From: Nemertoderma westbladi
Lineage: Eukaryota > Animalia > Xenacoelomorpha
Direction: 5' to 3'
DNA: 64,000 bases
Assembly: GCA_032718475.1 (NCBI GenBank)
Contig: JAUCBJ010001489.1
Location: forward strand, 1-64,000
Shown here piece after piece: positions 4,761 to 45,101 of the stretch. Below the pieces are notes generated by a model, which saw nothing but the letters and a program-made list of their open reading frames with translations, did not search any database and was not told where the DNA came from. Position 1 is the stretch's first letter. Every line of letters begins with the position of its first letter. The position numbers were made by a program, and so were the translations under genes.

Positions 4761-6033
4761 CACTTATCCATTATACCTGAGAGAGATGTCAGCACCCCTC
4801 ACTTACACTGTGGTTCCGGATTTAAGATAACACTATATGACACAGGCGGCAAGGATGAGATAATTACGGGGAACTATCGCCCGAGAAACATAGAGAATAT
4901 AGTCTCCTACCGACTGGTCAGGTCTGGTGGTGTCACTCTGGAAAGTCAGGAGATAAAATCTCTAACTATAAATAAGAAAATCAGCGCCCTATCAAAGTTT
5001 GAAGTCTTCGATATGTTGTTCGAGTTAGCTTATTTCTGCCGAGTGGTAGATTATCAAATACCATCAGAAGCACTCCATTTAAAAGGGGCAGTACGTAGAC
5101 TCTATCTCAAGAACATGGCAAAGTTCTGCAACCATTACGGCGATCTGAAGGGTCAACCCGGAATCAACAATAACTGCATAGTGAACGCTGCCTGTTCAAT
5201 GAACAAAATATCGTTAAGCCACAATATCCAGGTAGAAGACAGCATACTCACATTTGAAATGTCCGTTGAAAACAACTTATCATTGAAGAGGAAAGTAAAT
5301 GGGTTCACTATATATGAGCCTAGCCCAAAGCTCCAAAGTAGCTACAGAACTTATAGTTCGACGGACGTATTTAGCGACTTGTCAGAAGGTGAAATTATCA
5401 CTTTGAAGACTGTAGGAAGATGGCTCACAGGAACCGAGTGTAATGATAGAAGTTTGATATTCGACTATTACCACAAGTCTAATAATATAGACGACAAAGA
5501 TGCTAAGGAGCACTATGGAATCAACAATTGGCATATAATCCGATGGGTAAAGGAGGCTGCAAAGATAGTTGCAGTAGGAAATCCAAAAGGATCAGAGATC
5601 AGAGACGAGTTCAGTCCCGTTATGGCGGTATACTATGTTATTAGCTTCAATTCCCTTAACAAGAGAGGATTACCGCAAGTTGTTAGGAGATGTGAGCCAC
5701 TATGTGTTGCCCACATGGTACTATATTAAGGAATGCACCTTCCACATAGGCCAACCAACCCCGGTATTCTCAATGATAGGAGTAAATTCACTATTGGTGT
5801 GCGGAGAGATGATGTTACCTATAGCGGATAAACCCTTTCTAGACAAATATGTTTTTGTTCGTAATACTATTGAAGTAGGGATGTCTACTACAACCTTGAT
5901 GAATAAAAACCTAGAGACGGGAATAGTAACTATCAAGGATAAGAACTACGTATTTAGAAAGCGGCATCAGAACAAACATACAATGGAGGCTAATATTGCC
6001 ACCACTACTTATCTAGTAGTGTTAGTAGTATAG
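4761..6033 (+). pseudogene. Intronless orphan ORF with one probable frameshift (~5635); candidate viral-derived fragment
   Basis: Frame is stop-free from 4761 to 5729 (extends upstream of the listed Met at 5013) and overlaps ORF 5635-6033; no TE motif recognised. Confidence 0.45.
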
Positions 6034-6145
6034 GTATATACTACTGGTATATAGTAATATACTTATCTGCAGTCTACATAATTATATCAGGTCCAACCTA
6101 AAGGGAAAACCAATTACTCAATTTGATGCTCTTTTAAATTTTGTC

Positions 6146-6706
6146 ATGGAGCAGAACCCATCTGCCTCATCTTTGAAAGTTGGTAAAATTCTTAGAACAT
6201 TCTTAATAAAGTACAGAGCTAAGTGGCAATCAGCATGTCGAATCCTGTCTAAATTCGAAACTAAAAATTATGCATGGCTTCATTCGACCTTTGTAGCTGA
6301 AGGTGATTGTTTACCATCGTCAGTTACACCTCAGCAACAACAACATCAGCCAGATCATATGAGTGTTGAGGCGGGAGAAAGTAATTATTTTTCTCGCAAA
6401 AATAAATCAGATAGAAGAACAATAGACTTTGGGGAAGCTTCAGATTGTACGAAACGCAGATAAGTACAGGAAATAACATCAGAATTTAAAACTCCTGCTC
6501 TTGTCGCAGCAACTGCAGCTTCCTTGAAAGCTGAAGATAGAAAACGTACATCTGAAATAATCAAGCATGTTTCTACCGAGCCCGAATCATCTGTAGTATA
6601 TTCTGATGATGAAGCTCTTGCACTAATGCTCGATGGAAAATTAAGTAAATCAATGTACCAGATAATCAGAAACAAAGCATGTTCTAAGGGTGTCAACATC
6701 TACCCA
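6146..6706 (+). pseudogene. Transib-like transposase N-terminal fragment
   Basis: FGEASDCTKRR*...YSDDEALALMLDGKLSKSMYQIIRNKACSKGVNIYP matches the Transib N-terminal pattern (F.E.S.R.KRR...EALAL..D..LSK.QY..IR......IYP); internal stop. Confidence 0.7.
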
Positions 6707-8104: not shown

Positions 8105-10825
8105 CTTACTCTGGGAATCCAAGAGTGTCGCAATAGTGTACTCCTCCTTCAGCTCTATGTCGACAACATGTTTGCGGCTGTCTCCTCCACAGAAGTACCG
8201 ATGCATCTGATGCAATAATGCATGCTTCAGTTTAACTGCTACTCCGCTCATTAAACACCTAAAATGGAGCATTGCATTGGGTATAATAGGCCACGCCGAA
8301 GCACTAAACTTGTTTTACATTGATAATCATAATTGTGATAAAACGTCCAACTTCTACTAACACTTACTTGACAAATGGTATGACTTCGGAGATACACGCA
8401 TCTTCAGATTCCGATCGTGCAGTAATCTCGGCGAATCGAATGGTTTAAGAATGATAGCAATCTATAAAATATAAAAAAACGATAGGAAATAAGATGAGGT
8501 ATGGTATATAAAGCAATTCTATTCAATTTATATACGTTTAACTGTATTGTATTTATGGTATGTATTGTATTGTGTTCTATTGTATTATATTGTATTGTGA
8601 TATGTATCTATTTTATTATGGTCTATGAAAGTATGATATGATATAGAAAATAGTCTACAAAATATTATAAATTTACATAGAATGAAATAAAAAATATAAA
8701 TGCAATTGAATTAGGTCTAGTAGTAATAATATAATATAATATATTGGAAATAAATAATATAAATGGACTAATAAATAAATAATAGTAATAAATTATAAAT
8801 TAGTAATATGGGTAACAAATAATATATAACTAAACTAACCTGTTTAAGTAGATCCATTTCCCTTGAATTTAAAGAGTTCCTATCTCCTTCCCCGATTTCT
8901 ATGAGTGCTCGTACAATTGGGTGTTTCTCGTCAAGGAAACACTCTTATCATGAGGAACGTGGAGCTCCATCGCATCGGTGAGTCCGTGCATAGCACTCGT
9001 TCAGGATGGTTCTCAACTTTCTGGGCCTCTCTTAACGCATCCATCGCTTTAGGACTATGGTGGAAGAATGCTGCTATCTTGCGAACTTTATCGATACAAC
9101 TGGAGATGTCAGTTAGGTTCTTTATAGCATTTGTAACAACCAAATGCAAAGTGTGGGCAAAACACCCGACATGAGACCAATTGTTCTCAGTCATAGCCAA
9201 CACCATATTTGAGGCGTTATCTCTAAACATCAGGTGCAACTTTTGATCCTCTCCACCAGCTAGACCCCACATACCTAGAATATTCTTTAATACCGCAGCA
9301 ATATTGCGGGCATTATGAGACCCTGGGAATGGTTGGTAATCGAGTACGACACTCTTCCTAACTCAAGCGCTATTTATGAAGTGTATAATTAGGCTAATAT
9401 AGCTATCCTGGCGCGCAGAAGACCATATATCGGTTGTGGCAGTGAAACACTTAACTTCTTTATCTAGGATTATTTTAAGTTTACCGGCTACTCTTTTAAA
9501 TGCGTCTGGTATTAGAACAGTTTGAATATGTGTATTGCTTGGGAGAGTGTATCGTGGATTTAATGTATTAATAAAGACACCGAATCGTTTGTTGTTAATA
9601 AGGTGATATGGAAGCATACCATTGCAGATCCATTAGATTAGCTGACTGTGGTGTACTTGGATTTCGGAACAAACTCTGATAGGGTTGTCTGACGCAACGG
9701 CACAGCTGTAGATAAGGAACACGCGGATGAAACTTCCACCATATCAGACACAAGACTCTCAGTCTCAGACACAAGACTATATATTGAACCTTCTTTGGCC
9801 TTCTTGAGATCTTGTTCCTTATCTAGTGCAACCTGCAGGGCTTTCACTTCCTTGAATGATGATATGTGGTGGGACTCTAAATGGCGATACAGGGGACCAT
9901 TTCCGAACGATCTGAATTTACCACCGGTTTTTCCTCTTGACACCTTAATTCCACACCCCCCGACCATACATATTGCCTTCGACTTATCCGTTGAATAAAT
10001 CGAATAATATCCCCAAATGGGCGACGAATCTACATTACGACGTTTACGAGAGGAAGAGGCAGACTCCGCTAACATCAGAAGGCCTCGTGGTGGAGGTGGT
10101 TGTGGCGGAGGGCCTAGTTGCAGCGACGACGACTGTACCGTTATCACTCACATTCCCTTCGTCATCGTCACTACTGTCCGAGGGTGATTCCGATGGCACG
10201 TACACATCTTCACCATCTGATATACCGGAAATGGTACGGTCGGAAATACTAGCGTTTCCGGCACTGGTACAGGATGTACCAGCCGAACAAGATCGAATCC
10301 GGAAACCTCTACCAGAGCCCAACTCCACCATTAGGCCAACAGCTATAATAAGCTGTACTATAAAGTTCATAAAGCGGAAACACGTCATCCAGTTAATTAA
10401 TATACCGGCACAAAGTTCGAAGTTTCTGAGTTTATAATAACTATTTCTGCTACTATTTAGTACTATTACTGTACTGCTGTATAACAGTATAAATGCTGTA
10501 ATCCTGTAATCATGTAATGCAGTATGTCCGATTGTAGGCCTATTGTATTAAGTTTAACTAATGATTGAATGAAGTAGAGCCACTGACAGACTGCCATGCT
10601 GCCGTGCCAATAGACGTTGGTCAGTTCACAGTCAGCTAACTCTGTATCTGGATGTACAGATGTAAGCCTGCCTTCTGGCCTTGCCAATTCATGCAGCTAT
10701 GCATTGTGCAGCACAGTACTTTTTGCCGGAGCTCCAGCACCTAATTCGAACAGAGCCAGACTGGAGCCGGACATGCCAACTCCGGCCAGAGCCGGAGCCA
10801 GAGCCGGAGCTCCGGCCGAACCCTA
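8105..10825 (-). mobile_element. Degenerate hAT DNA transposon: BED zinc finger transposase with an intron and one TIR
   Basis: BED finger SPIWGYY...C..GC...LYRHLESHH; TTDIWSS; RDNASNM; CFAHTLHLVV; DSPMRWSSTFLM; LKPF...ACISEVIP; IATLLD; terminus TAGGGTTCGGCCGGAGC at 10825 with ccggctc subterminal repeats; GT-AG intron 8462-8839; stops and frameshifts. Confidence 0.9.
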
Positions 10826-11010: not shown

Positions 11011-12266
11011 AACAAGATTAAAATTTCTAGCTTATTTTATATGAATTCCTTTTAGTTAGTTTCAGTTAGTCTTTTAGTTAGTAGCTTTAGTTTCAGAGAG
11101 GGGGAGGTTTTATATTGAATGTTATAGTGAATTCAATATAACCACTACACCAAGGTGTGCTCTGAACAGAGGTGGAACAAATGTCAGATACCGTCAGATC
11201 AGATCAGATAAGGACAGACGTTTTAGCCATCCTACTTCCAATACATAAATTTGGCTATAAAACTTGAGCAAGCACATAATCACAGAACAAGAACACAACA
11301 CAACCCACAAATTTAACAGGGTTTTAATCATTGATTTATCCTACAGCCAGTCGAAACGGCACTACTATTGTATATGTTATGTAGTGTACCCATAAAAGAG
11401 TTTTTGCTACTATACTAGCTAAGATACAATACAGATACAGTACATATTTTAATTAGGCAACCAAAGTTTACTCAAAAAACATAAAAAATTAACAAAGCAC
11501 ATACTTTCTGCACCAAATAATTTACTCATTGACCAAATCACATACAAGCGGACCAAAAAAATAAATCTGGCCAAAGAAATAACAAATACATATAAATATA
11601 CAATAAAAATACATATACTACATAAAATATACTATATAAATCAAACAGCAATAGTCAGATATATTATATTTATTTCCATAGAGTCGGCTTTTTATTTATA
11701 TTTTTGGGACATGGGTCCAAAGAGCCTTTCTGACAACTTTCTCTTAGTGATTTCGCTAAGCATTCGAGGTCGATTGATGGGTTTTTACCCAGCGGAAGGA
11801 GCGTTGGAAGCTCAGTTGAAAAGTTACCTAATTACTTGCCAAAATTGTGTACTGAGTTGTATTCCCAATAATCTCCTTTCTCGATTCCATACGTTTTAGG
11901 AATAGAGTCGTTAGTTCCCAAAGCTCTCTCAAAGACACTATTTACTGTAGCTGCTAGACAAATCGAAAATAATTTAAGTTTCCAATGACTTTCCAATATC
12001 TCTTGCCAATTGGTTAGTTCCAGCCTTGAGAGCGCTTCCCTCATGTTTCTCTCCAAGATGATTTTCGACAATTCCTCTATTGAGTATTGGAAAAAACGGA
12101 ACATAATACACGGCGAGGCTATGGATCTTGCATCTTTCTGTCCTCTCTCCAATTGTTTAATGGAGGTTGATAAAGTTCTATCCTGGCCCAGAGTTGCTCC
12201 TGTGAGAACTCTTTCTGAACTGTGCCGAACTGACCTTTCTGACGTGCCTTTCTGAACTATACAGTA

Positions 12267-12568
12267 GTTAATTCGTCACCTGATGCTAACTTTTCTCTTG
12301 ATGTTGGTACCGGCAGACATGGCTCCTATTATCTCTAATCGTTGCAAATTTGTTGCATATATGATCCATTCCACAGGAAATGACTGACAAACAACTAATA
12401 CCGGTACATAATGTAACTGGCATTTGGTTCAAACAAATGCCAGTTACATTATGTATTAGTTGTTTGTTAGTCATGTTGCGTCGTTATGGCAAACCCGCCA
12501 TCCATAAAGTGTAAAGTTAAATGAGTAAATCTAAATAATAACAAAATGTCCGTTAAATAAGTTACAAA
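12267..12568 (+). repeat. Dispersed ~300-bp repeat with a long internal hairpin (copy 1)
   Basis: Near-identical to 42908-43208; palindrome at 12380-12474. Confidence 0.9.
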
Positions 12569-13436
12569 TGTCACGATGAAATGTGCTATACTACTTGAAC
12601 TACTTACTACTTTGTTTAATCAAAAAAATAACTGTTGTAAATAATATACTAATATATTATTAAGTCTAGACCCCAATGACTAATTGAGTTATATATGGAA
12701 CAGGAATACAACATGACAAAAAAAAAACGGAACACCCACATCTGTCGTCGGTACATTGAGTTCAGTCAGTTTGACCTGAATTAATTAGTCTGTTGAATGT
12801 GTCCGTTTGTGTTTAACCCCTGTTTTTAGATCCCCCTTCACCTCTGTCAGTAACGTCTTGGCTGTCAGGTTCCTATCTACTAGTGTAAAGTTTGGTGTGT
12901 CAGTGAAGAATGACAAAGTATCCAAACTAAAGTCTTTAACACAGTGTTGTCTCTGTATTAAGTTCAGCAAAAGGCGTCATTGGGATGAGCCAATGGCAAA
13001 CTGTAATTGTGGTATTGGTACCACCCCCTGTCCTGTTTCGTGCAATTTTGCCATTGGATCAGAGACTCGTCACATGGTACAGCCGTCGCCCCCCACATGC
13101 AGTCCTATACGTCCTCTGTATACCGTGGTGTCCGTTTCAAGGTAATTTGCTCCACAAATTCCAGACCCAGAAAGGCGTGGTTGGAAATGGATTGAGCAAT
13201 ATTGATCTGATCTCTAGAACAAGAGTCTCTGAGTGTTTAACAGCTGTGAAGAGTCCTTGGTGTAGTGTGGCTTATAACTTGCCTTGGCCAATGGCGGATA
13301 GATGTATACCTCGTGAGTCAAGGACGTTTCCGCCCTCAACTTGCTGACTTAATGTGCCACCAATCCCAATAGCGGATCTATCCCCGTAAGTTGTAGATTT
13401 GCCATGTGGAGGCAAAAGTTTATAAGTTTATTTTTA

Positions 13437-15220
13437 TTAAAGTTTGTTATTTAAGTTTATAATGAACTTACGACCAGACATGGAATTGTATCTCATAAAG
13501 TTTAGCATAGTATCATTGAGAGTAGGTCCTAGGGATGACAAATAATACCCAGGGACTGTTCTTATACTAAAACTGTCGCGTGCATAGCTTATTAATGATT
13601 GTGTAGCCAGCAACTTGGCACCTTCCATTAAGTCAGAAGCAAAATTGATTAAAACTTCTTTTTTTAACCAGTGCATTTCTTCAATCTTGGTTTGATCTTT
13701 TATATCTTCGATCTCTCTCCTATGATCAGATGTGCGAGGCATGTAGAAAGGTAGGTGCCAGCCTGAAGAATCAGTCTCACATCTTTTCAGGTGATTAAGT
13801 ATCAGGTTATGGTGGCACTTGTTGTGCTCGCATTTAAGGTTCCACAATGTCTTTAAATTAGTTAGTAGAAGTAAATCATGACAGCCCATTATAGTGTCAA
13901 TTAGAGAAGGAGGAGGAAATCCACCAAGTGATGGAGGTAATAATAATTGTTTATGATCATCCCACATTCTACGCTTTGAACTAAAAAATCTGGTTAATCC
14001 AAATACACATTGAAATCTATGCAAGAAACATGCATATATTAGGGATGCTTGAATACCATCACCGTTGCATGACAATAGCTGCTGCATTGTTGATGTACAA
14101 CTATTATAATAGTTTTCAGGTGTAATATCTCTACTGATTTGCAAAGGACCCGTTACAAACTTCAAAACTGCTAACACCTGTTTCCCCATATTCATGAATT
14201 CTGATTTAAACTCACAGATAGATGGTGAGCTATTGCTTTTTTCTGAAATTATCATATTACACATGTTTTCGACTGTTGAGAATACCTTTTGATAAAGCAT
14301 AATCATATCTTTGACTTCCTGCCATTGTGTTGGCACAGTAAACTCTATTTCCATTATATTGGCATAATCATCTGACGTGCCCATCTCATCATTTCTAATT
14401 TGTTTCACATTGTGGTACACTTTCTTTATATACAATATTGATATATGATGACTGTAATTGTTAACACATGTACCGTAAACGTCACTACACCTGTGCAACA
14501 TGCCTTGACCCATGTCAAATGTAGTCTCAACATATGAGTTACCCTTTTTAAGTATCTCATGTACAAAAGTCTCATTGTCATCCAATTCCATCTTTTTAAT
14601 GATTTTCTTAAAACCATTTTTACATAACTTATAGGGATTTCCATTCTCTTGTATGTGTGACATGCAAGCTCCAACTCCATGACATCGCTATACTCTTGCA
14701 TATCAAATGCAACCATGATAACCCTGAATGCTTGTGGGTGGTGGTTTGGACCCCATTTACCATGATCGTAAGTCCAGTAAGTTGTCCACACTTTCTTTTC
14801 TCCTTTGATCTTAATTGTATTGTTAGTGGGATCTGATCTGTCAGTTTGATATATGGATGAAACATTTTCCGTCATTGCTTCACAGACCCTCTTTCTAAAG
14901 TTAACTTCATTGCTTTTTACATCTAAACAACTAGTAGGCATTGATTTAGACACTGCTAATGCCGGCATCTCCACTAATCTAAATTTAAGCTTCCCTGCAG
15001 TGTCTGATAAAGTAAGTTCACGTACGCTAATTACCTGTTGTTTTGCTGCAATTCCAAAGTATATAGGTTGTGCATCAACACAACCTGATATGTCATTGAC
15101 TAGTTCGTAAATGCTAACATCTTCTGTTGCAATCTTATTAAGTAAACTCAGAACTGCTTGAGTTGTTACTTCACGACCATTCTTGAAAGGTTGCAGTAAC
15201 ACACCTTGATAATCTGCTTT
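13437..15220 (-). pseudogene. L: Endogenous viral element: arenavirus-like (Bunyaviricetes) L protein RdRp core, one frameshift near 14595
   Basis: Pre-A/F AAKQQVISVRELTLSDTAGKLKFRLVE; A YDHGKWGP; B FDMGQGMLHRCSDVYG; C GTSDDY; D NMIISEKS; E CEFKSEF...LKFV; in correct order across ORFs 14426-15202 and 13437-14663. Confidence 0.93.
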
Positions 15221-15391
15221 ATATTTTTAGAATTATTATAATTAATTTTGTTATGTTTATAATGAATTATATCTTTTGACAGACTAATTGATGGGGGGGG
15301 GGGGGGGGGGCAATCAATATTCTCCCCTCTACAGGTGAAAATTGAGACAAATAACAGCCTGTTTACTACTAAAATAAAACTGCATCCTGTT

Positions 15392-15689
15392 CTATAGGAA
15401 AAAAACATTATAGGGGAAATTTTAGCAAATTGTGTATATTTTAGCCGATAGACAAGATTACATGTTTACCAAGTTTGATATAATTTAGTCAGAGATTGAA
15501 AGAGTTACGATTTTAATGAATTACGTTATTTTGTTCCTCTAAGACAGACGATTTCTGCAAATCCTTGACAAAAACAAATATTGTTTTCTGCATCAGATGT
15601 ATCAAACATTCAGCAAGATATTGGAAATAAAAGTAAATTGAAATAGTGCAATTTTACTTCTTAACCTTTATAAACTGAATAAAATTAAC
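15392..15689 (+). repeat. Dispersed ~300-bp repeat (inverted copy at 61849-62147)
   Basis: Near-identical reverse complement of 61849-62147. Confidence 0.9.
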
Positions 15690-15922
15690 TGTATTAGAGC
15701 AATTATATTTGACACCTTTATGAACTAAGTAAAAAAGTACCTTGAATTACTGCAATTATACTTGCTTGAGTAAAGCAATTATATTTGGCAACTTTATGAA
15801 CTGAGTAAAAAAGTAACTTGAATTACTGCAATTATACTTAATACCTTTATGAAATGTGTAAAAGTAACTGAAAGTAAAGCAATTATACTTGATACCTATA
15901 TGAACTGAATTCGTATAATAAT
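15690..15922. repeat. Degenerate tandem repeat (~55-bp unit)
   Basis: gcaattata...cctttatgaactgagtaaaaaagta recurs; an inverted piece lies at ~46441-46490. Confidence 0.7.
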
Positions 15923-16424: not shown

Positions 16425-17544
16425 TTACCATCCCCGGTTGTAATCTATGTTGTATTGCGTGTTGAGTGTTGGGTGCTCGTGTGTTATGAAATACTTCTCG
16501 CTGAGTTTTCTGTCGGTCCAATCCTTGCATATGCGTTTAATTTTGATTGTGAATGGGTGCGGTGTACTGTTATGGCCTTCATGTTTATCTAGAAAGTGTT
16601 CCCCGATTGGTTCTTTCCGGTTGGCATTATGTATAGAATTTCTATGTTTCATTATGCGTATGCGCAAGGGGCCCGCCGTTTCTCCTATGTAGTTCTCCAC
16701 TTTATGGGTGCACAGAGTACATTGTAATTCATAGACCACGTTGCTGGTAGTGCAGGCTCTAACTCCGTGGTTACAAGTGTAGCAGGGGGTGTTTCTAAGG
16801 GATGGACAAGGGGATCCCGTAAGGCTACCTCGTATCAGGAAACGTTTAAGGTTGGGGCCTGGTAGGTGGACAACCCTGATATTGGATCTGAGCGGGGACA
16901 ACTCAACAATAGTTTGTTCCCCTTTTCGTACATGTTCGTTAAAAAATGGTATAACTAATGGTATACACGTAGCGTTAACATTTTTGCGTGGGCGGGTTTT
17001 GGGTATTGGACCTAATATTGTATTCTGGGTGCTGATACGTGGGTGTGGGGCGGGGTGGTTAGTATGTCTGGGCATGTTGTGGGGGCTAGTCCTGGTGTAT
17101 GTATACAGTACAGTATGTGTACAGTATGTGTATTATTGGTGTTGGCGTGGGAGTGTCCGTTAGTGCGTGGGCGTAATGGTGGGTTAGTGCTCGATATTGT
17201 GTTTCTACGGCTAGTGCTATTATTCCGTGGGTGTGTTATGGGGGGGAAAGTGCGTTAGATATAAGTTTGGTATCTAAGTGGGCGGGGTAGTCATTGTTAC
17301 ACAGGATGTTTCTAACTTTATCAAGACTGCGTGAGCGGCCGTTCGGGGTGTTACTATTGCAAATAGCGCGTTGAATGGTTGACCTAGCGACATTGACAAT
17401 CATGTTTCGGGGGTGGTTACTGTGGTAGTTCAAAATGATACCAGCACTACTAGGTTTAATAAAAAGTTCAAAATCTATCCGTCCTTCGTTGTTAATGGTG
17501 GTTGTCACGTCAAGGAATGCTAAACTAGAGAAAGATTTCTCCAT
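16425..17544 (-). mobile_element. 5'-truncated Penelope-like retroelement (RT thumb plus GIY-YIG endonuclease)
   Basis: LAFLDV...ELFIKPS...YHSNHP...NDYP; C-terminal PCYTC...NVVYELQCTLC...YIGET...RIMKH...IGEHF...E...I....PTLN; frame-disrupted P/T-rich linker. Confidence 0.9.
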
Positions 17545-18199
17545 GGTTTCTGACTTCTGATTTCTGACTATCCGACAATCTGTCCGTCAAATATGAGAAA
17601 AGGGCATACAATCTAGTTAAAAGTTCAGCTAGAGGGGTTTTCCTGGTCGCAGAATTCATTTCGAGTGTCAGATTTAACATCGGAAGACTTCCAAATTGTC
17701 TGTTTGGCAGTCAAGCTGTCTGTTGGTAATTTTTTGACGGACATACTGACAGGCATATAGACAGAAACGACAAGGCCAAATTTGAATATTGACATCAGAA
17801 ATAAAGTCACCAACCACGAAAACCCTTATAGGGAATTTTGTAGACAGATAGTTTGCTTTTTATTGATGGACAGACATTCTGACGGACAAATCGACAGTCA
17901 ATCGGACAGACAGCCATATCTCGAGAAGTAAGACAGATCTTGCTAAACGGTTTTAAAATTTGGAATCTTCATCTCTAAATGAAATATAATAAAAAAAAAT
18001 TTTTTTTTTATATTAATACTTATTTATTATCAATAAAGAGTAAAATTTAGAACATTGCACAAATAAATAATGTATAGATATATGTATATGTATAAAACAC
18101 AGTCAAGATGAGCTTCAATTTGAATATTTGTATATTGACAGAGAATCATAAGATAAATCAATTGGATTATAGAGTGGAAAATTTAAATTTAGATTATTC

Positions 18200-19665
18200 A
18201 ATTGCGAGTATTAATAAGTTGTGTTACAGTCACCATCACCCATCAACCCCATCAAACAGTCCGATGTAGTGGAAGGGTGTGTCCACGGTTCCCACCAACG
18301 ACGCCGCGTTTCCCATGAGAATTGCCACCACCAAGCGTCTCAGCAAAAACTTCCGTTGCGACCGTTGCTCATGGGTCCGAGCATGAAGACGCGCCCCGAC
18401 TTCCTGGAGGAAGCTGGCAGTCTCGGGTCCAGGTCGACCAAAGGTCTCAAAGGCCACAGGACTGAAGTAGCAGCGACCACGCTCTACCAACTCGCTATAC
18501 TTCCTAATCTTCACCCGCTCAGCCTCCTCAGCAGCACGCCACCAGCGATGAGGGTCTGCTGGAGATGACTCGTGGCGAGGGGATCCGTTACGGTTGCGTC
18601 CCAGGCCAATGAGCGGCCGCGGTTCCAAGGCATCACTGTAACCCCGTCAACCCTCTTACCATCGCTCTGACACAGACCTGGGGGCTCAAGGATGGGGGAC
18701 ACCCCGCAGCTGACCAGCGCCCGCCTTACTATATCGTTCAACATAGCGTGGTGGGGATGCCGGCCAGCGCTCCTCAGGTAGCAGATACCATGGAGACCAT
18801 CAGCAGCTACCAGGCTACCACAGCAACAGGTATGCGGCTCGACTACCTTACATCCCAGCTGCATGGCAACGGCGATGCAGAAGTGGCTGTCATCCAGCTT
18901 CAGTCCCAACGACGAGATGGGTAGAGCACTGAGCCAGCATCCGGCAACTGGGTGGTCCAGGGAATTTAACCTAGCAAGGTCGACTGGGGATGAAACTAGA
19001 CGCAGCGCTGCGAGGTTAGCCAAGTGGACTGGGGCCACCCACGCCCTCTGAGCAGTCATAGAGGGTAGAGTAGCGTCCGAAGGGAGGGAGGATATCCAGA
19101 ACTCCCGGGCCAACTCGTTGGTTGGGCTCACCACCCCCACTGAGTGGAGCAGGCGGTCGGACAGAGAAGAACAGGCAGCCACGGCTGGCGGATGGTGCGA
19201 GCTGCACTGCCGAACTCAGTCCGAGACCACCCACCCGTGCGGGGAGGCAGGCCTGGTCCCAGGCTGGGTCGCTGATATTAGTGTTAGCGACTTCCTGCAG
19301 GGTACTTCGGAGGATATCGTCGTAGTTCTTAAGTGATTCAGGGAATAGGAAGCACGGCGCTGTCCGGAGGAAGCCAAGGTTAGCCGAGGTATGGCAAATG
19401 AATTCTTTAGGAGGAAGAAGCCGTGGTGGGCATCTAGTAGAGGTATGCGGCAGGCTAGGGTAGAGAGGTCCCCTATCTTTGATGCGAGGCAGGATGCTAT
19501 AGCGGCATCACCAATGCGGGCACCCAGCATTGACAGCTGTTCAAGGGGTGGGTACTTGATACCAGGGCAGACTGAGTTGAACTCCAACTGGATACGGGCG
19601 CGAGATTCCTCTGTCTCCAGCCCTAGGAAGAAAAGTTCACTCCTCCCAGGGTTTATCCTCAACCC
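18200..19665 (-). mobile_element. 5'-truncated REL-endonuclease non-LTR retrotransposon (CRE-like), frameshifted
   Basis: GLRINPGRSE; GGLGL; WLSALPISSLGLKLD; C-C...H..C zinc knuckle; RHAMLND-like motif; KRVDG...WDATV; KIRKY...FSPVAFETFG. Confidence 0.88.
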
Positions 19666-19964
19666 CAAAAAACCTCAAAAAACCTCAAAAAAAATTGAAA
19701 AAAAATTTGATTTCCTGTACTGATCCCCTTAAAAGTAGTAATTCTCCGGGATGATATGGACGCGAAATTCCATTAAATTCCATTTGTGAAAATCTTCGTA
19801 TATCATTCCAGTATGTTATTGTTAAAGAATTTTGTGGCTCTAAAACCCTATCTACAACTCAAAACTTCAGCTATAAGGTTAGTTAACTATATTGTAATTA
19901 TGATAAAGTGAGTTGATAAACTAAATAAAGTAAATAAGCAATATAATAATTTATTAATTATTTT

Positions 19965-21801: not shown

Positions 21802-21984
21802 AATTTATACAAATATGTATACTTTACTATAGATGTTTGTATGTCTTCTATATTGCTTCTAATAATATATGAAATTCACTAGGCCTAAACTAAACGTAAT
21901 GTAATTCCATGAATGTACCATAGATTAAAATAGGATTAAAATAGGAGTTATCGGCCTGACAGATAGTTGGCTTTCCTGAACTTA

Positions 21985-24900
21985 ATTTAAATATTTGTTT
22001 TTGGAATATTGCAGGATGCAAGGACAAACTTTCTAGTGGTAGTATTATATCGTTCATAGTAAACTATGATTTAGTTTATATATCAGAGACTAAAACGGCC
22101 GCCAGTGTTTCTGTACCAGGTTTTGCGACTATTTCAAACCCGTCAAAGTCACCACATCGTGGTGGTATAATCTTACATGTTAAATACGCTATACTCGACA
22201 GAATCAAATCTATAGATAAGTCAGTAGAAGGTCAGATATGGATTGAGTTTGACTATATAGCTGATACATTGTTTGGTAGAGTCTATATTCCGCCGAATGA
22301 TAGTCTGTACTACGATGATTCATTATTCACTGAACTGCACCACAAATTTGACTCGTCAAAAGATTTCGTTGCGTTAGGTGATTTTAACGCTCGTGTCGGC
22401 ATTCCACAAATCTATGATATCGACAATGAGATAAATACAAGTAATCTACACTATAGAAATATATCTGATCTAACAGTTAACAAAAGTGGTCAAATTCTAT
22501 AGTGCATTTGCACAGCTACAAATTAAATTGTTTGTAATAATCTTTGTTCTGGGTACTCTAACCTAGGAGGTGGTCTAACTTATAAGAAAGGTGGTAAATG
22601 GGTGTCAGAAATCGATCTTTGCGTGTCGAGCTCTAATATTTATGGTTCAATTGCAACGCTCGACGTACATCAAGACATTCTAGGTTCCAATCACGCACCA
22701 ATATCTATTTTGGTTAAGGTTGATAGAGAAAACTTTTTTGTTGATAAGAAGGGTCTATTTACTCGTAGTATGAGTTTAGGTTGTTCAATTTATGAAGACG
22801 GTGATGCTGTTAAGCTTACTGGAGTAGCCATGGATATCAAAGGACTTTCCCATAAATTTGTCGAATGCGACAAGTTTGAGGCAAGGATTGCGCAATGTGA
22901 TCCTCCTGTTATCACGGATACTAACGATGTCGATACGTTGTTGGACTCGTTCTTTGAGACAATCAATGAAGCAGCCCGATCGTGTCGAAGATCTCGTAAC
23001 GATCCAGTGATCTCAAGGGATCCTGATGCATGTCGATGGGATCATATCATCAACTCAAATGATCCTAAAAGTTTATGGAAAGCACTCGACTGGAATGGAA
23101 ACATTTCATTTGAAGATGAGAATAATGCAAATACTGCACCTAAAGATGAGGAGTTTAGGACTCATTTTGAGTCTCTTCTCAATCCTAGTGAACCTGCAGA
23201 CATTGACTCCGACATTACTAGTACTATTTACGTACCATGTCTGGATGATCCATTTACTCAACGCGAATTTGCCGAAGGTTTGGCCGATATGAAAACCAAC
23301 AAAGGTTATATTGGAGTAAGCCCTGGCTTGCTAACTAGGCTTCCAGGTTCATGGCTGATATTCATCTTATCAATCTTTAATTTAATATTTATTGGTGCAA
23401 TATATCCTGTAAAATGGGATGTTAGTAAATTAATAACGTGTTTCAAATCTGGTAATAGATTAGATTGTGGCAATTACCGTGGTCTTAGTATAATGACAAC
23501 ACTGTTAAAGTTTTTTGATATATTAATTTACAATCGGTTATAATATTGGATTAATTTAGATAAATGTCAGGCAGGAGCTCAAAAAGGCCGAGGGTGCATT
23601 GAACACATCCTCGGACTTCGACTCATTATAGATTATGCAATTTTCAAGAAGTCTAAATTATACGTCGTTTTCATTGATTTTAGTAAGGCGTATGACCGTG
23701 TTCCACGTGATAAAATGTTTGAACTACTTAAATCTTCAGGGTGTGGTTTTCGGATGTTATTTATTATTAAAGCGCTGTATTCTGCAACAAAATCTATCTT
23801 AAGATCTGCTGTAATTCTGACTACTATTGGGGTCCGCCAGGGGGCGCCTTCAAGCAGGATTTTATTTTGTATGTACCTTAATAAACTTGTTATCATGTTA
23901 AAAGAAGCTGTTAAATGTGATGGTTTCCTTGGTGCTTTAGTTTGCCTTTTGTTTATGGACGATACATTAATAGTATCAACTTCTAGGAAAAATTGTGAAA
24001 TTAAATTACATGCTCTATACGATTATTGTACTGTTTTTGGTATGGCAATTAATCAAAAGAAAAGCAAATTTTTTGTAATAAACGGTAATGTTAATGACAG
24101 TAAACCATTTATTTTAGGTACTACAGTTATTTCTATATGTGAATTTTATGTTTATGTTCTGTTTTCGCCGCTGATGGCCGCATATCTACTGCACTAAAAC
24201 ATCATATTATCATATGTGAGAGAACAATTAATAAATTTGCAATATTTTGCAGTAAGAATACATCACTCCCATTCGCTTTAAAGAAAAAGGTTTTTGATGC
24301 ATGTATAATATCTTCTATTTTATATGGTTGTGAAACGTAGTTGTCTGTTAATGCATGTACTAAGCAAATTGAACCGGTCTACAATAGGTTAATTAAAATT
24401 TTACTTTCAGTACGTCAACAAACACCAATTGATTTGTGCTTAATTGAGTTTAATATCCCACCACTTAGTCACTGTATTGTAAATGCTAGACTTAAATATG
24501 TGAAAAAGATGTTTAATTTACCCGTGCACGATACTGATGTGCCTTTATATTATATTTATGATCTTTGTAAAGCTGCAAACACTCCCGGATATCGTTGTTT
24601 AATGTCAGCACTTGATTACAAGGTTGATGACCCCCTAACTTCCGTCCGTTTACGTGTATTAAATAAACCACTTTCAGCTACCAAGTTCCGTACTTACAGT
24701 GACACTATCAACCCTGGCCTTACTGCTCATCCACTATACAGTTGCTTGAAACCCGTCATCCCGGACTTTAAACGTGTCCACTTCACCAGACTCCGTCTCA
24801 TGTCACATAGACTCCGAGTGGAAACTGGTCGATGGACTCGTGTTGCTCCTGAGTTACGTGTTTGCTATTGTGATAATACCTCTGTACAAAATGAACATCA

Positions 24901-25060
24901 CATACTATTAAAATGCCCGATATCTGAATACATTAGAATTAAGTTTGTACAGTTAGATTTCACCGATTTATCTTCATTATTTTCTACCGATTTACTAGTT
25001 GATCTGTGCAGTTATGTCTCTGAAGTCCTATGTCTTTATTATTGAATTAATCTAGTGCTA
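21985..25060 (+). mobile_element. APE-type LINE (RTE-X-like) ORF2 pseudogene: endonuclease, RT and C-terminal CCHC
   Basis: ICFWNIAG, ISET, GDFNAR, SEIDL, GSNHAP (APE); NYRGLS, FIDFSKAYD, GVRQGA, LFMDD (RT); RLMSHRLRVETGRW..C.C....EHHILLKC; several stops. Confidence 0.9.
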
Positions 25061-29795: not shown

Positions 29796-30407
29796 GTAAG
29801 CAACCGAGGGTGGACTCTCTATAGCCGAGGGGCACTTGTATAATAACTAATAATCACGAACCCCGTCCTCTTATAATATACACCTAACTCTGCAGTAGTC
29901 AGTAGTAGTAGTAATAGTAGTTATGTAGTAGTGGTAGTAAGTAGAATAAGAGTGAGAAAGAGAGAGAGAAAGAGAGAGACTGAGAGGGAGTAGAATAGAA
30001 TAAGATGCGGATTCATAATTATTCAAACTCATGTACTACTTACTTCAATGTGCCAATTGTAATAATAATTAAACATTACTCTGATTACGCTGGGTTTGGC
30101 CCCATAAGATATTATACTGACGTATTAATATTAATATATCCATTCGAGTAAACAAGAAGTGAAGTAAATGTTTATTATTATAGTTTTAAAAATTGAATGA
30201 TATACCCAAGATAGTGAAATAGATAATATACCAGAAATTGCCATTTGATCAGATGTATCAAAGCGGCGTCTTTAGTATAATACAATTCATTTTGTTATAC
30301 AATTTAAATATAGTAAATCTATTTATAAATATATAATGTAAAGATGATAGAAAAAAATAAAGTATTGAGGGTCTTTAGCTGGTTATATTATATTAGATAA
30401 AGATACA

Positions 30408-30447
30408 ATAGTAAACGTTTTCGACCTACCGGTCTGCATCAGACTAT
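30408..30447 (-). ncRNA. Minimal type I hammerhead ribozyme in the inverted pLTR
   Basis: Reverse complement of 34422-34461. Confidence 0.7.
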
Positions 30448-30870
30448 GTACTGGCAACTAACAGGAAAAGGTGGGGGGGTCTATATATATATATAAGTTT
30501 TAAAGGGGAATACCTGATAGGTGAATCCCAGAAAGGTTAACGTGTATGTATGTACTGTATAACGTAAGGTAATTGTGATAGGGAAAGTACACCGAGTTAG
30601 TTGTAAGCTGTCAATCTAAAGTACAAATATAGGGTTGCAGGTTGGGTTATAAGGTTGGGAGAAGTTGATAGGGAAATCCCAGGAGTGGTCATGTGTCTAC
30701 ATACTGAATGGTATAATTGGATTAGGTAGGTTACAATAATGGAGCAACCACCAACGACCCAGGAGCACACACCAACTCAAAGGACGCCAACAACAAACTA
30801 ATCAGACAACTCAACAAATCTTTAAAAACACCCCCGTCGAGCCCTACCACCGAAAAGCGATGACGAAATA

Positions 30871-33800
30871 GTGGAAGCTCTCATCGCCGAACTACACCGT
30901 GACGTAGACCGAACACCCAATGTCTCCCCCAAAAATGTGCCTCAGGACAACCTTACGAAACAACAACGAACTGTCCTCAAATCACTCAAGTCAAACACTA
31001 ACATTCGTATCTGTAGGGGCGATAAATCTGGTAACACTGTAATCCTAGATACCAATGACTATAAAAATGAATGCTTACGTATTCTAAGAGACCCTAACAC
31101 CTATACTACATTAACTAAAGACCCTACTAATAAATACAGAACACAACTTGACGCACTACTACAAACCTGTAATATCGACACCAAACACACACTACACCCA
31201 CTACTACTACCTAAACACCCTAAGATAGCGTACTTCTACTGCACTATTAAAGACCACAAGGACAGGGAATCATGGATAAACTGGGGCGACGGTAGACTCT
31301 TACCTAAGGGCAGACCTATAGTTGCCACCATGGGCACCCTTCTACACCCACTTTCCCGCTTTGCTAACGACCTTCTAGAACCCGCGGTCACTCGCCTGGA
31401 GTCTAACTTGAAAGGGACAGACGACTTCCTATCAGCCCTCCCTAGAGATATTGGACCCGACTGCACTCTGATTTCACTGGACGTAGTAGACATGTACACT
31501 AACATTACCCATGATGTAGGATGTAGGGCACTACGACAAGCACTCTCCGAGGACACGCACTTCACACAACAAACACTCATCTCATTAGATAACTTTATAC
31601 TACTCGTCCGATTTATACTTGAACATAACTACTTCACTTTTGATAACACACTATACCTTCAATTACGAGGCGCAGCCATGGGTAGCAGTTTCTCGAAAAA
31701 CTACGCTAGCCTAACCATATCTAGATTAGAGATACACTTCCTCCACATCCTGAACAACCCCATTAATAACTACCTAAACGCGAGTGTATCAAACAGACTC
31801 CCTAACACAACTAACCTGGATACTAACACACCCGATCTGGATCTAACCACCCCTACCAACCCGAGCTCAACAACCACTGATCCCAACACTACTAACAAGA
31901 CCAGATATAATCCTAGTATAACTCCCCTAAAATCTATCAAAAACACCCCTGAAACTCACAGAACTACCATAACTACCCATGTAACTAATACAACCACCCC
32001 TGAAACTAACATAACTACCCCCAAAACTACCCTAACTACCCATGAAACTAACATAACTACTCCTGATATTAACATAACTACCCCTGCAACTAACATAACT
32101 ACCCCTAAAACTAACATAACTACCCCTGAAACTACCATAAGTACCCACGAAACTAACATAACTACCCCTGAAACTAACGAAACTAACATAACTACCCCTG
32201 AAACTAACATAACTACCCCTGGAACTAACATAACTACCCCTGGAACTAACAGAACTACCCCTGGAACTAACATAACTACCCCTGAAACTACCATAAGTAC
32301 CCATGAAACTAACATAACTACCCCTGAAACTAACGAAACTAACATAACTACCCCTGAAACTACCATAAGTACCCATGAAACTAACATAACTACCCCTGAA
32401 ACTAACGAAACTAACATAACTACCCCTGAAACTACCATAAGTACCCATGAAACTAACATAACTACCCCTGATACTAACGAAACTAACATAACTACCCCTG
32501 AAACTACCATAAGTACCCATGGAACTAACATAACTACCCCTGGAACTAACAAAACTACCCCTGGAACTAATATAACTACCCCGGAACCTACCCCTTCCAC
32601 CCCAGTCTGTAATAATATAACTACCTCAGTAACTTATAAAACTAAACTAGCACCAAACACTACACCTAACCCCGTTTTCTCAGATCCAATAATAACGACC
32701 CCAATATCTAACCTTACACCTCCTGATTCCAACATCAATATTCCAGAAACTATCCTATCTATCTCAGATCCTAATATAACCATAACTAACGAAACTACCT
32801 CAACCTCGGATCCAAACATAACCCCCCCAGACGATAATACAACTTACCCTATTCCATTCTACAAACGGTTTGTTGACGACAGCTATGGTATAGTACAACG
32901 TATATTAAGTGAACAGGACATTCACAACATACAGAAAATCACTAACTCCGCTTGTAACGACTTATTCCAAAACTCTGATATACAATTCACCATTGAATAC
33001 TCCCACACATCACTCCCATTCCTTGACGTCTTGACACAGATTAACAACGAAACACTAACAACTACATTATACAAAAAACCAACTAGCAATAAACTCCCGA
33101 TTCACTACAATAGCTTCCATGATAAGAAATTACTACTATCCGTAATTCGTAGCCAACTCCTACGCATCCACCGCAGATGTAGCGAGTCTAACGACTATAC
33201 CAAACTCAGAGACGAATTCCTTGGCGAATGTCTACTCAGGCAGTACCCCCAGAACCTCCTTAACAAACTTAGACATTGGACTCCCCAAACTAGACCTAAA
33301 GACACTAACTCGAAACCCACATTTTACCTATCCACTAACCAACAGATGAAGGGCATATTCCAAAATACTGTACGTAGATACTCCAAAAACTACGATCTTG
33401 ACATCAACATTAATGTAGTCACGAAGAACCCCACATCACTAGGACAAATACTAACCAAAAATAAAACTCAATCGCAAACACACACAAATAACACCACTAA
33501 TGAGCCATGTAACTCTAGCCGCTGCCTTACATGCAAAACTATCACTAACATACAACAGACACCATGGGGTGAAAAGATAAAAGGACACTATACATGTAAG
33601 TCCCACACTGTATGTTACTTGGCCTGGTGCCACTGCCACCCTACTCTATACTACATAGGCCAAACGAGACAGAAACTTCACGAACGCTTTAATGGACACC
33701 GCAACAACATACGACACTACCCCTCACGAGCCAATGACGGAAAAACACACGAAGACATACTCCTAGCTAGGCACATATACGGTTGTGGTTTAGAAAATCT

Positions 33801-33912
33801 ACGCACCGCAACCATAAAACAATTCACAAACATACCCGAACTACTAGCGACGGAAGCTAACCTAATCTATACATACAACCCCCCACTTAACGTAGCAAGA
33901 CCAGCAATCTAA
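30871..33912 (+). CDS. Penelope-like RT plus GIY-YIG endonuclease ORF (1013 aa), 5'-truncated, with a large repeat insertion
   Basis: GDKSGNTVILD; IKDHK; GRPIV; SLDVVDMYTNI; GAAMGS; KRFVDD; LPFLDV; YKKPT; PC...RCLTC; VCYLAWC...YYIGQT...RFNGH; PPLN. Confidence 0.93.
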   Translation: MEALIAELHRDVDRTPNVSPKNVPQDNLTKQQRTVLKSLKSNTNIRICRGDKSGNTVILDTNDYKNECLRILRDPNTYTTLTKDPTNKYRTQLDALLQTCNIDTKHTLHPLLLPKHPKIAYFYCTIKDHKDRESWINWGDGRLLPKGRPIVATMGTLLHPLSRFANDLLEPAVTRLESNLKGTDDFLSALPRDIGPDCTLISLDVVDMYTNITHDVGCRALRQALSEDTHFTQQTLISLDNFILLVRFILEHNYFTFDNTLYLQLRGAAMGSSFSKNYASLTISRLEIHFLHILNNPINNYLNASVSNRLPNTTNLDTNTPDLDLTTPTNPSSTTTDPNTTNKTRYNPSITPLKSIKNTPETHRTTITTHVTNTTTPETNITTPKTTLTTHETNITTPDINITTPATNITTPKTNITTPETTISTHETNITTPETNETNITTPETNITTPGTNITTPGTNRTTPGTNITTPETTISTHETNITTPETNETNITTPETTISTHETNITTPETNETNITTPETTISTHETNITTPDTNETNITTPETTISTHGTNITTPGTNKTTPGTNITTPEPTPSTPVCNNITTSVTYKTKLAPNTTPNPVFSDPIITTPISNLTPPDSNINIPETILSISDPNITITNETTSTSDPNITPPDDNTTYPIPFYKRFVDDSYGIVQRILSEQDIHNIQKITNSACNDLFQNSDIQFTIEYSHTSLPFLDVLTQINNETLTTTLYKKPTSNKLPIHYNSFHDKKLLLSVIRSQLLRIHRRCSESNDYTKLRDEFLGECLLRQYPQNLLNKLRHWTPQTRPKDTNSKPTFYLSTNQQMKGIFQNTVRRYSKNYDLDININVVTKNPTSLGQILTKNKTQSQTHTNNTTNEPCNSSRCLTCKTITNIQQTPWGEKIKGHYTCKSHTVCYLAWCHCHPTLYYIGQTRQKLHERFNGHRNNIRHYPSRANDGKTHEDILLARHIYGCGLENLRTATIKQFTNIPELLATEANLIYTYNPPLNVARPAI
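31945..32590 (+). repeat. Coding minisatellite, 21-bp unit gaaactaacataactacccct (ETNITTP)
   Basis: About 30 units with 21- and 9-nt variants, all frame-preserving. Confidence 0.95.
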
Positions 33913-34421
33913 ACCCAATGTTTTATATAATACACCCTATATTCTATATCTTACACAACTACAGTGCCCTCTATAGCGAATTTCCGGGGTTTTATGTGCT
34001 TTTCCCCTACCTTCCTTTTTGTTTTTGTCTTGGTTTTTTCTGTTTCTTGTGATTTCTTACTCTGTAAAAATTACAGCTATCATTATGTTGCATTCTACCT
34101 AACCGTGCGCTTTAAGTAGATACCTCATAATCCTATGTAACCTACCTAATCCAATTATACCATTCAGTATGTAGACACATGACCATTCCTGGGATTTCCC
34201 TATCAACTTCTCCCAACCTTATAACCCAACCTGCAACCCTATATTTGTACTTTAGATTGACAGCTTACAACTAACTCGCTGTACTTTCCCTATCACAATT
34301 ACCTTACGTTATACAGTACATACATATACGTTAACCTTTCTGGGATTCACCTATCAGGTATTCCCCTTTAAAACTTATATATATATATAGACCCCCACCT
34401 TTTCCTGTTAGTTGCCAGTAC

Positions 34422-34461
34422 ATAGTCTGATGCAGACCGGTAGGTCGAAAACGTTTACTAT
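34422..34461 (+). ncRNA. Minimal type I hammerhead ribozyme in the 3' pLTR
   Basis: atagt-CTGATGCA-gacc(ggta)ggtc-GAA-aacgtt-t-actat: 5-bp stem I, 4-bp stem II, palindromic stem III. Confidence 0.75.
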
Positions 34462-35139
34462 TGTATCTTTATCTAATATAATATAACCAGCTAAAGACCC
34501 TCAATACTTTATTTTTTTATCATCTTTACACTATGCTGCCGCTGGTGAATGCCTACCACTTCATCCGTTCGTATAAATATATAATGAGCCTTACATTGTA
34601 TATTTATTCCACAGGTAGACAAAGTAGTATGTTAAAACTTGATATAATTTGGTATAATGTATAACATATTACAAATAACACTGAGGCAGCTAAACTATAT
34701 TGCAAAGAAATATAAAGTAATATACTAGACCCTCCCTCCACTCTATAAATAGTGTTCACCACCTACCCCACCCACCGCCCTTATTACTTCATAATAATGA
34801 AAGAAAGTACTGGCGCTCCGGTCACTCCGTTCCCTCTGCTGGGGTGGTTAAGTAGTAGGTTTTGACACTATGCAATGCGTTAGAAGCGCATTGGATAGGC
34901 GAACATTTCTTGCAGTGAAAGTATTTCCATACCTATTATAGTTTTCGAGATAGTCAGACATGAGTAGCTAAAATTTGAATTTTTTTTTGGTAAAGTCTGA
35001 TTTCACCGGTACCTATCATCCGAAATATGGATTGTGATATATCGTTAGATGCGGGTCTACTAACTGTACGTTCACATATTTTCAAGGAAAAAATTCGATC
35101 AAGGGTTTTCGAAATATTTTCGAATTACCGGAAGCAGAC

Positions 35140-42850: not shown

Positions 42851-42907
42851 AAGGATATTTCTGATCTTCTTTTAGGACAAAAATTGCCAGTGTACCGGTA
42901 TATACAT

Positions 42908-43208
42908 TAGTTAATTCGTCACCTGATGCTAACTTTTCTCTTCATGCTGGTACCGGCAGACATGGCTATTAATTTATCTCTCTAATCGTTGCAGATTTGT
43001 TGCATATATGATCCATTCCACAGGAAATGACTGACAAACTAATACATAATGTAACTGGCATTTGTTTCAAACAAATGCCAGTTACATTATGTATTACTTC
43101 TTTGTCAGTCATGTTGCGTCGTTATGGCAAGCCCCGTCATCCGTAAAGTGTAAAGTTAAATGAGTGAATCTAAATAATAACAAAATGTCCGTTAAATAAG
43201 TTACAAAT
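42908..43208 (+). repeat. Dispersed ~300-bp hairpin-containing repeat (copy 2)
   Basis: Matches 12267-12568. Confidence 0.9.
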
Positions 43209-43780: not shown

Positions 43781-45101
43781 GGTAATGGTGAAAAATATCG
43801 AGACTTGAAAAATATCGAGAGTAAAAATAACGAGAGTAAAAATATCGAGAGTAAAAATAACGAGTGTTGAAAATTAACGTGATTAAAAAATATCGAGAGT
43901 AAAAATAACGCGAGATGAAAAATATCGAAAATAACGAGTGTTGAAAAATATCGAGTGTTGAAAAATATCGAGAGTAAAAATATCGAGTGTTGAAAAATAT
44001 CGAGAGTAAAAATATCGAGTGTTGAAAAATATTGAGAGTAAAAATATCGAGTGTTGAAAAATATCGAGAGTAAAAATATCGAGTGTTGAAAAATATCGAG
44101 TGTTGAAAAATATCAAGAGTAAAAATATCGAGAGTAAAAATATCGAGTGTTGAAAAATATCGAGAGTAAAAATATCGGGTGTTGAAAAATATCGAGAGTA
44201 AAAATAACGAGTGTTGAAAATATCGAGTGTTGAAAAATATCGAGAGTAAAAATATCGAGTGTTGAAAAATGTCAGTGTTGAAAAATATCGAGAGTAAAAA
44301 TATTGCATTTTGCTTGAGCATTTTATTTAGAATTATGGAACAATATTGCAGTGCATGGGTTACAACAGTGCAAGTGCAAGTGAATGGCATTATGTAATAC
44401 ACCTTGGGTACCCATTTACCAGATTTATTATACTAGCTAGTTTTTGCTATTTTGTTAATAAATATTATAAAAGAAGTGCTAGCTGTAAACTTTGATAAAT
44501 ATTATAAATATTGTTAAATACAGTATTATATTAGAACACGTATAAGCTACCAAATGTTGATAAATATTGTTGTTCTAGAACATTTTTAGTGAAAAAAATT
44601 ATCATACAACCCTTATTTAAAAAAATTGTTACTATCGATATGTTTACTCTCGATATTTTTCAACATTCTATATTTTTTTCAACACTCGATATTTTTCAAC
44701 ACTCGATATTTTTCAACACTCGATATTTTTCAACACTCGATATTTTTACTCTCGATATTTTTCAACACTCGATATTTTTACTCTCGATATTTTTCAACAC
44801 TCGATATTTTTACTCTCGATATTTTTCAACACTCGATATTTTTACTCTCGATATTTTTCAACACTCGATATTTTTACTCTCGATATTTTTCAACACTCGA
44901 TATTTTTACTCTCGATATTTTTAACTCTCGATATTTTTCAACACTCGGTATTTTTACTGTCGATATTTTTACCCTCGATATTTTTGCTCTCGATATTTTT
45001 TGAACTCTCGATATTATCGTTATTTTTCAACACTCGATGTTTTTACTCGCGTTATTTTTACTCTCGATATTTTTCATGTCTCGATATTTTTCAATATAAC
45101 C
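43781..45101. mobile_element. Non-autonomous foldback element (Mutator/FB-like) with long arms built of tandem subrepeats
   Basis: Arms of aaaaatatcgagagt / aaaaatatcgagtgttg in inverted orientation; termini ggtaatggtgaaaaatatcga and tcgatatttttcaatataacc; 8-bp TSD cactgtag at 43773-43780 and 45102-45109. Confidence 0.88.

Follow-up and report, generated by a model that had tools for sequence, protein, structure and literature searches.

The minus strand of the window, by which we mean the whole 64,000-nt stretch of DNA analysed, carries between positions 13,455 and 15,207 some 584 codons of a bunyavirus L polymerase, comprising motifs F and A to E and part of the thumb. We interpret this segment as very probably a damaged DNA version of the polymerase core of a virus from an unnamed mypovirus-like branch, which was captured in the germ line by reverse transcription and later duplicated, the copy in the window being a truncated derivative. 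By sequence comparison the fossil branches deepest within a mypovirus-like clade, itself the sister of Arenaviridae, and it lies outside that family. The features of the locus, in window coordinates, are as follows.

11,709–12,257, minus strand: orthomyxovirus-like PB1 piece, a second viral fossil (Pfam Flu_PB1, E 6e-7 in the open frame and 1.6e-14 with stops read as X)
12,258–12,569, no strand assigned: host interspersed repeat dividing the PB1-like piece from the rest (91% copy at 42,901–43,208)
12,570–13,454, minus strand: multi-copy degraded piece with a picorna-type 3C protease-like motif at about 13,088–13,165 (Pfam Peptidase_C3G, E 0.19, below cut-off)
13,455–14,585, minus strand: L polymerase piece 2, the downstream piece, with motifs B, C, D and E and part of the thumb (Pfam Bunya_RdRp, E 1.4e-12; Arena_RNA_pol, E 4.4e-10)
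13,564–13,565, minus strand: point at which the window's copy is without 498 letters present in other copies (joint seen in contigs of runs X1, X2 and X3)
14,586–14,623, minus strand: frame break in the interval between motifs A and B of the window's copy, where two open frames overlap
14,624–15,207, minus strand: L polymerase piece 1, the upstream piece, with fingers, motif F, SCL, motif A and the segment behind motif A (Pfam Arena_RNA_pol, E 7.8e-8)
15,208–15,700, no strand assigned: high-copy host repeat at the upstream end of the L piece (depth in thousands; 15,388–15,689 has a 96% copy at 61,849–62,151)
21,960–25,045, plus strand: LINE-type element with endonuclease and reverse transcriptase (Pfam RVT_1, E 4.4e-24; Exo_endo_phos, E 0.003)

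The viral limits of approximately 13,455 and 15,207 were set from contigs aligned to the window, and the L pieces are read from two overlapping minus-strand frames without stops, 14,426–15,226 and 13,437–14,687. The three Pfam matches of these frames are all above the curated cut-offs, and in a PDB search with the L pieces arenavirus L proteins came out on top, with nairovirus L next. A first-pass annotation made from the letters of the window had proposed that the whole RdRp core was present in order, and indeed every motif it quoted was found in that order on the minus strand across the two frames; the RdRp motifs A to E expected of Mypoviridae (PMC10770932) are thus present, although they are common to other bunyaviruses as well. 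Its estimate of about 590 codons with one frameshift near 14,595 was close in length and in the position of the break, which we place at about 14,600, but the break is not the sole lesion, given the loss of 498 letters further downstream.

The fossil amounts to roughly one fifth of the L proteins most like it, and within this stretch we found no endonuclease or cap-binding part of L. Because about four fifths of L is missing, the window's copy would be unable to make a working polymerase. An AlphaFold model of L piece 2 (pLDDT 46.6, pTM 0.29) was too poor to serve as a basis for fold comparison.

Placement of the fossil beside Arenaviridae

A HMMER search with the downstream L piece among 1.84 billion representative proteins gave 22 matches at E ≤ 0.001. 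The best 11 of these (E 1.9e-30 to 1.4e-17) comprised eight unnamed L proteins of 2,807–3,196 residues on contigs of 8.6–9.9 kb, two unnamed fragments and Hubei myriapoda virus 5, with the first arenavirid match appearing only at E 8.9e-9. Three further members of this group came from a second search, one of them Erysiphe necator associated negative-stranded RNA virus 20 (EnNSRV20). The upstream piece matched the unnamed protein P0004 at 34% identity (E 1e-23 by blastp, in a small database).

Further searches for L homologues were largely negative within their scopes. A word-based search with L piece 2 among proteins of 729–2,080 residues, a range below the size of the true relatives, yielded 0 of 2,528 candidates; two IMG/VR scans yielded 0 of 25 and 0 of 1; and JGI metagenomes yielded 0 of 598. 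An IMG/VR scan using the alignment retained 2 of 38 candidates, one sized like the L segment of Hubei myriapoda virus 5 and the other a distant bunya-like fragment. The IMG/VR contig L002:3-3065 carries a partial L of 1,020 residues from a distant bunya-like virus.

The first-pass annotation had labelled the element arenavirus-like, and it was reasonable to consider whether this is a true arenavirid fossil in an invertebrate, given that Arena_RNA_pol matches both pieces and that arenavirus L heads the PDB lists. We regard this as very improbable. The same Pfam profile also matches Hubei myriapoda virus 5 and six of the eight unnamed full-length L proteins, and since it matches mypo-like proteins too, a match is not diagnostic of Arenaviridae. 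Likewise DHxKWGP, DMGQG and EFKS, which had been taken as pointers to arenaviruses, turned out to be common, together with SCL, to the mypovirus-like clade. Identity over the aligned core is 29–34% to 13 mypo-like rows as against 22–25% to seven arenavirid rows. In motif F the window has RELT, as do six of the seven mypo-like rows displayed, whereas all five arenavirid rows have RELY or RELF; the SDVYG end of motif B is found in the window and in six of eight mypo-like rows but in none of five arenavirids. This motif F and B signature was read from our own alignment and is not an ICTV criterion.

The main tree was built from 26 rows and 489 columns under the mixture model LG+C20+F+G4, without phenuiviruses, hartmaniviruses and some published mypo-like viruses, and was rooted on two nairoviruses plus two or three unclassified rows. 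In it the window groups with the IMG sequence P0005 and with P0009 (98/96). The sister of these three is a group (98/94) in which the clade of Hubei myriapoda virus 5 joins that of EnNSRV20, and the EnNSRV20 clade is separate and fully supported (100/99). The whole mypo-like clade has support of 99/96 and Arenaviridae 97/97, and the two are sisters at 92/91. Long branches meet at P0005, and when P0005 and P0009 were removed the window was still the deepest mypo-like branch (99/98). A tree from the downstream piece alone had weaker support (87/94, unstarred).

AU tests were run under LG+G4 with three long or short rows removed. With the pieces joined, placement of the window within Arenaviridae (seven arenavirid rows) was rejected at p 0.0009, as was its placement within the group that Hubei myriapoda virus 5 forms with the two unnamed sequences nearest to it (p 0.0009). 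Taken singly, both pieces fell on the same side of the tree, and Arenaviridae was rejected at p 0.011 and 0.009. The label of nearest relative therefore passes from arenaviruses to the mypo-like sequences, which supply the best matches; the remark that Mypoviridae is a related lineage was borne out, this family being the nearest classified relative of the fossil in a clade sister to Arenaviridae. The donor lineage is probably of family level.

Two groups of sequences in this tree deserve mention. P0009 is a 209-residue L fragment on a 19,033-nt ENA contig, which far exceeds the length of an L segment, and it shares the window's branch; it may be another endogenous copy of the window's lineage in a different host. 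P0001 to P0004, P0006 and P0041 to P0043 form an unclassified, fully supported clade, sister to Mypoviridae, with L proteins of about 2,820 residues and one named member, from a powdery-mildew sample.

Copies, junctions and lesions

The L stretch was recovered in three of the six listed runs (X1; X2 and X3), which represent two samples of two studies and whose type we took to be DNA by guess; one of them is possibly the source of the window itself, and no RNA run was listed among those with the stretch. Flanking sequence was covered by X1 contigs identical to the window at depths of 16.6 and 17.6, and in X2 at 10.8 and 13.3, while the L stretch was covered at depths of 75–122 in X1 and 22–41 in X2. 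The greater depth of L than of the flank suggests several copies, although contig depth is not a copy number. Repeats with depths in the thousands, and contigs identical to the window over AT-rich non-coding DNA, are consistent with genomic DNA. In run X5, a third sample with the same species label, the L and PB1-like pieces had no contig cover, and since contigs cannot prove absence we make no claim of polymorphism.

Among the contigs listed, none crosses either junction of the L piece at this locus. The PB1-like piece is covered exactly in X2, and a 749-nt X1 contig (11,546–12,294) passes with zero differences from AT-rich non-coding DNA through this piece into the host repeat. For the L piece, a 2,202-nt contig (X1 and X3) carries the 498 extra letters at 13,564/13,565, followed beyond 13,455 by about 1 kb unlike the window. 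These letters were present in contigs of three of four runs, and the match of P0011 stops at query residue 374, the very same spot. At 15,207/15,208 the contigs have loose ends, other copies running on where the window enters the high-copy repeat. Other copies are thus longer, which makes the window's copy a shortened derivative.

The first-pass annotation counted the frame break as a frameshift, and two frames are indeed present in the window, but the contigs listed carry a form that differs from the window at about 14,600 in all of their depth (202/202 in X1, 46/46 in X2 and 417/417 in X3). As the window's form is absent from them, the break may be an assembly error, or it may be private to this copy, given that contigs drop rare variants.

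The L contigs fall into two copy families about 8% apart, which occur side by side in the DNA runs of the two samples. Over 165 nt they show 1 as against 14–15 differences from the window (X1, X2 and X3), and over 157 nt none as against 12 (X1 and X2). Silent sites were counted over 21 L differences among the 40 listed, with one beside the break excluded. In 14,871–15,035, 9 of the 11 listed differences are synonymous and 10 of the 11 fall at third positions (expected share 0.33 for transitions; p 0.0012); we infer that these 11 belong to the second family. The listed contigs for 13,497–14,376 match the window at about 99% identity, and there synonymous changes make up only 3 of the 9 differences listed, the share that neutral drift would yield. 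Because the families differ mainly at silent sites, as if they had diverged during virus replication, this pattern suggests that at least two related viral genotypes were integrated; most simply read, the copy in the window then drifted away from its own family.

It was also necessary to consider that the sequence is not integrated at all, and comes from an exogenous virus or from episomal viral cDNA fused to host DNA by misassembly, as the guessed run type and the failure of any listed contig to bridge the L junctions might allow; but near-identical copies with the same structure occur in two samples of two studies, and an exact X1 contig joins the PB1-like piece to non-coding DNA on both sides while X2 covers that piece exactly, leaving this the faintest of prospects. 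The element is fragmentary, lesioned and embedded in host repeats, the features by which non-retroviral integrated sequences are recognised, and it is a genuine endogenous viral element, of a kind already known. The earlier proposal of a germline-type fossil from a divergent, undescribed lineage near the arenaviruses was supported, and the further impression of a recent element was likewise sustained, in that the fossil looks young and little decayed. The CpG observed/expected ratio is 0.37 in the L piece against 0.75 over the window, and as the low value could reflect either viral heritage or later decay through methylation it is of no use for dating.

Neighbouring viral pieces, host repeats and origin

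The PB1-like piece, which like the multi-copy state of L had escaped the first-pass annotation, lies 1.2 kb from the L fossil on the same strand and at the depth of the flank. It has one in-frame stop and has lost about 140 residues internally. In the PDB it matched a 710-residue PB1, presumably that of Thogoto virus, at E 5.6e-11 in two stretches, 221–267 and 448–520. A word-based search for its homologues gave 0 of 770 candidates, and an Atlas search gave RdRp-type leads only, all under 0.9.

Between the two lies the degraded piece at 12,570–13,454, whose summed depth reaches 681 in X1. Its cysteine-protease motif is one that we take to be of the picorna 3C type; the sub-threshold Pfam match was the only one in a scan of three minus-strand frames and two plus-strand ORFs, and a PDB search returned nothing at E 10. 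As a candidate third viral fossil this piece is a weak lead.

The surroundings are rich in transposons. On the minus strand, 8,931–10,147 presumably is a hAT-like DNA transposon remnant and 16,425–19,674 presumably holds remnants of Penelope-like and other non-LTR retroelements, both named from motifs and both without a Pfam match at E 0.01. The six coding remnants to which a name could be given between 8.9 and 19.7 kb are all on the minus strand, with mixed orientations farther out; this bias was seen post hoc, and three of the names are tentative. The 169 frames scanned (31 of 76 of 100 or more residues and 138 of 139 of 62–99 residues) contained no host gene and gave only transposon and viral domains plus two sub-threshold matches. 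Pfam found DUF5641 within the window, which we assume to be a BEL/Pao-associated domain. These BEL/Pao and LINE remnants, with the CpG ratio of the window, fit the earlier impression of an invertebrate genome.

Elsewhere in the window, 30,351–34,518 holds a 1,028-codon frame that has no Pfam match, is bounded by inverted repeats of about 400 nt at 98–99% and is, we assume, Penelope-like; its reverse transcriptase region is split at 31,962–32,590 by an in-frame, threonine-rich array of 21-nt tandem units. Two head-to-head arrays with a 15–17-nt unit form a long inverted repeat at 43,789–45,094 and are foldback- or MITE-like. Three overlapping open frames of 322, 151 and 144 codons on the plus strand at 4,761–6,463 had no Pfam match.

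From what is known of non-retroviral endogenous elements, the locus would have arisen when viral RNA was copied by the reverse transcriptase of a retroelement; the DNA copy would then have been inserted in the germ line and afterwards duplicated, and the window's copy would be a truncated and internally deleted derivative. If the fossil has a role, the likeliest would be to serve as template for antiviral small RNAs, in a region rich in transposons that resembles a piRNA cluster, as in ticks and mosquitoes. Such a role, which we propose by analogy, is conceivable but falls short of an even chance.

The same origin is equally compatible with a neutral passenger that was inserted and duplicated with transposon-rich DNA and gives no functional RNA, and we judge the chances of this to be balanced. 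The truncation, the internal deletion and the stops across the three pieces are what would be expected of it, and duplicated fossils are common in arthropod genomes according to the portion of PMC6580184 available to us. On the other hand, two and perhaps three unrelated viral pieces on one strand within 3.5 kb seem to exceed what scattered insertion would give. A more far-reaching proposal, in which a new family-level lineage infected the host recently and repeatedly and left a single-strand antiviral memory cluster with bunya-, orthomyxo- and picorna-like pieces, we consider unlikely.

A domesticated viral gene would be a further alternative, with one integration, longer copies kept coding by purifying selection in the host, and a decayed duplicate in the window. 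The silent bias between the families, the long frames without stops and the lack of the break in the listed contigs could all be read in this way. Two viral genotypes, however, would produce the same silent bias, and the copies end at differing neighbours, as their loose ends reveal. We therefore hold domestication to be improbable, and retain the capture of viral RNA in the germ line followed by duplication as the preferred account. Because there are two close genotypes and little decay, the virus may still circulate in its host.

Relation to known viruses and viral fossils

We found no description of the window's lineage, or of an arenavirid L fossil, in a literature search in which subscription journals were mostly uncovered and for which supplements on wasp EVEs and marine viromes may hold relatives. 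The parts of PMC11596407, PMC11437466 and 10.1101/2022.10.18.512700 that could be consulted contain nothing specific to this lineage. A survey of vertebrate EVEs (10.1101/2023.10.26.564176), as far as its accessible text goes, brings in arenaviruses only with regard to retrovirus-derived ectodomains, and an insect survey (PMC6932829, available in part) reports no insect arenavirids. Mypoviridae figures as a named donor for EVEs of wasps (10.1101/2022.11.16.515002) and a mypo-like virus has been reported from a marine crustacean (10.1101/2021.04.21.440720), both according to partial texts. On the sequences compared, among which these wasp EVEs and the crustacean virus are not included, no relative of the core exceeds 34% identity, and the donor lineage is probably undescribed.

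Mypoviridae has a single classified species, from myriapods (PMC10770932), as also stated in the accessible part of PMC12282299, and is the closest relative of Arenaviridae according to ICTV (PMC12139605). Its representative, Hubei myriapoda virus 5 (genus Hubavirus, order Hareavirales), is the nearest classified virus to the fossil (E 7e-18, 29% over 414 columns). The two have the RELT and GMLH..SDVYG forms in common and fall in one clade (99/96), but SCL and motif A are 49 residues apart in the window as against 189 in the virus, and whereas Mypoviridae has three monocistronic segments of about 16 kb in all and a myriapod host, the window holds a fragment of L as a DNA fossil, and no NP or GP was identified. 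EnNSRV20 and seven unnamed Logan relatives, with L proteins of about 2,820 residues, show the highest identity to the window (30–34%) and the best HMMER scores; they are unclassified and form a clade apart from it, the powdery-mildew origin of the named member being taken from its name. Arenaviridae has motifs A, C and E in common with the window, but differs in the forms of motifs F and B, in a spacer of 23–28 residues between SCL and motif A, in L proteins of about 2,000–2,400 residues (in the rows used) and in its vertebrate hosts. The arenavirus genome is divided into two or three segments, as a rule ambisense, that encode NP and GPC and in certain genera also Z (PMC12139605).

The sister group of the arenaviruses is thus represented by one classified species, its other members here being metagenomic sequences that have neither a name nor a known host. 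A germline copy links the deepest branch of this group to an animal host, and so bears on an invertebrate origin of arenaviruses. Were the more far-reaching proposal above true in a host outside the arthropods, it would widen the range of hosts at the base of the arenavirus line, and capture of viruses of the piRNA type would extend beyond arthropods. With a PB1 fossil beside L, the locus is also a test case for viral memory by small RNAs. An invertebrate arenavirus would have been a greater surprise than this result, fossils of bunya- and orthomyxo-like type being well known in arthropods.

A close parallel is in Ixodes, in which, to the extent that PMC6580184 could be consulted, bunya- and orthomyxo-like replicase pieces are enriched, duplicated and located near non-LTR elements, lie preferentially in piRNA clusters, and include one scaffold hotspot with three viral groups. 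The window's locus resembles these, as far as that partial account allows, in having replicase-derived bunya- and orthomyxo-like pieces that are duplicated and lie by non-LTR elements; it differs from both the Ixodes and the wasp EVEs in that the lineage that donated its fossil is probably one not yet described.
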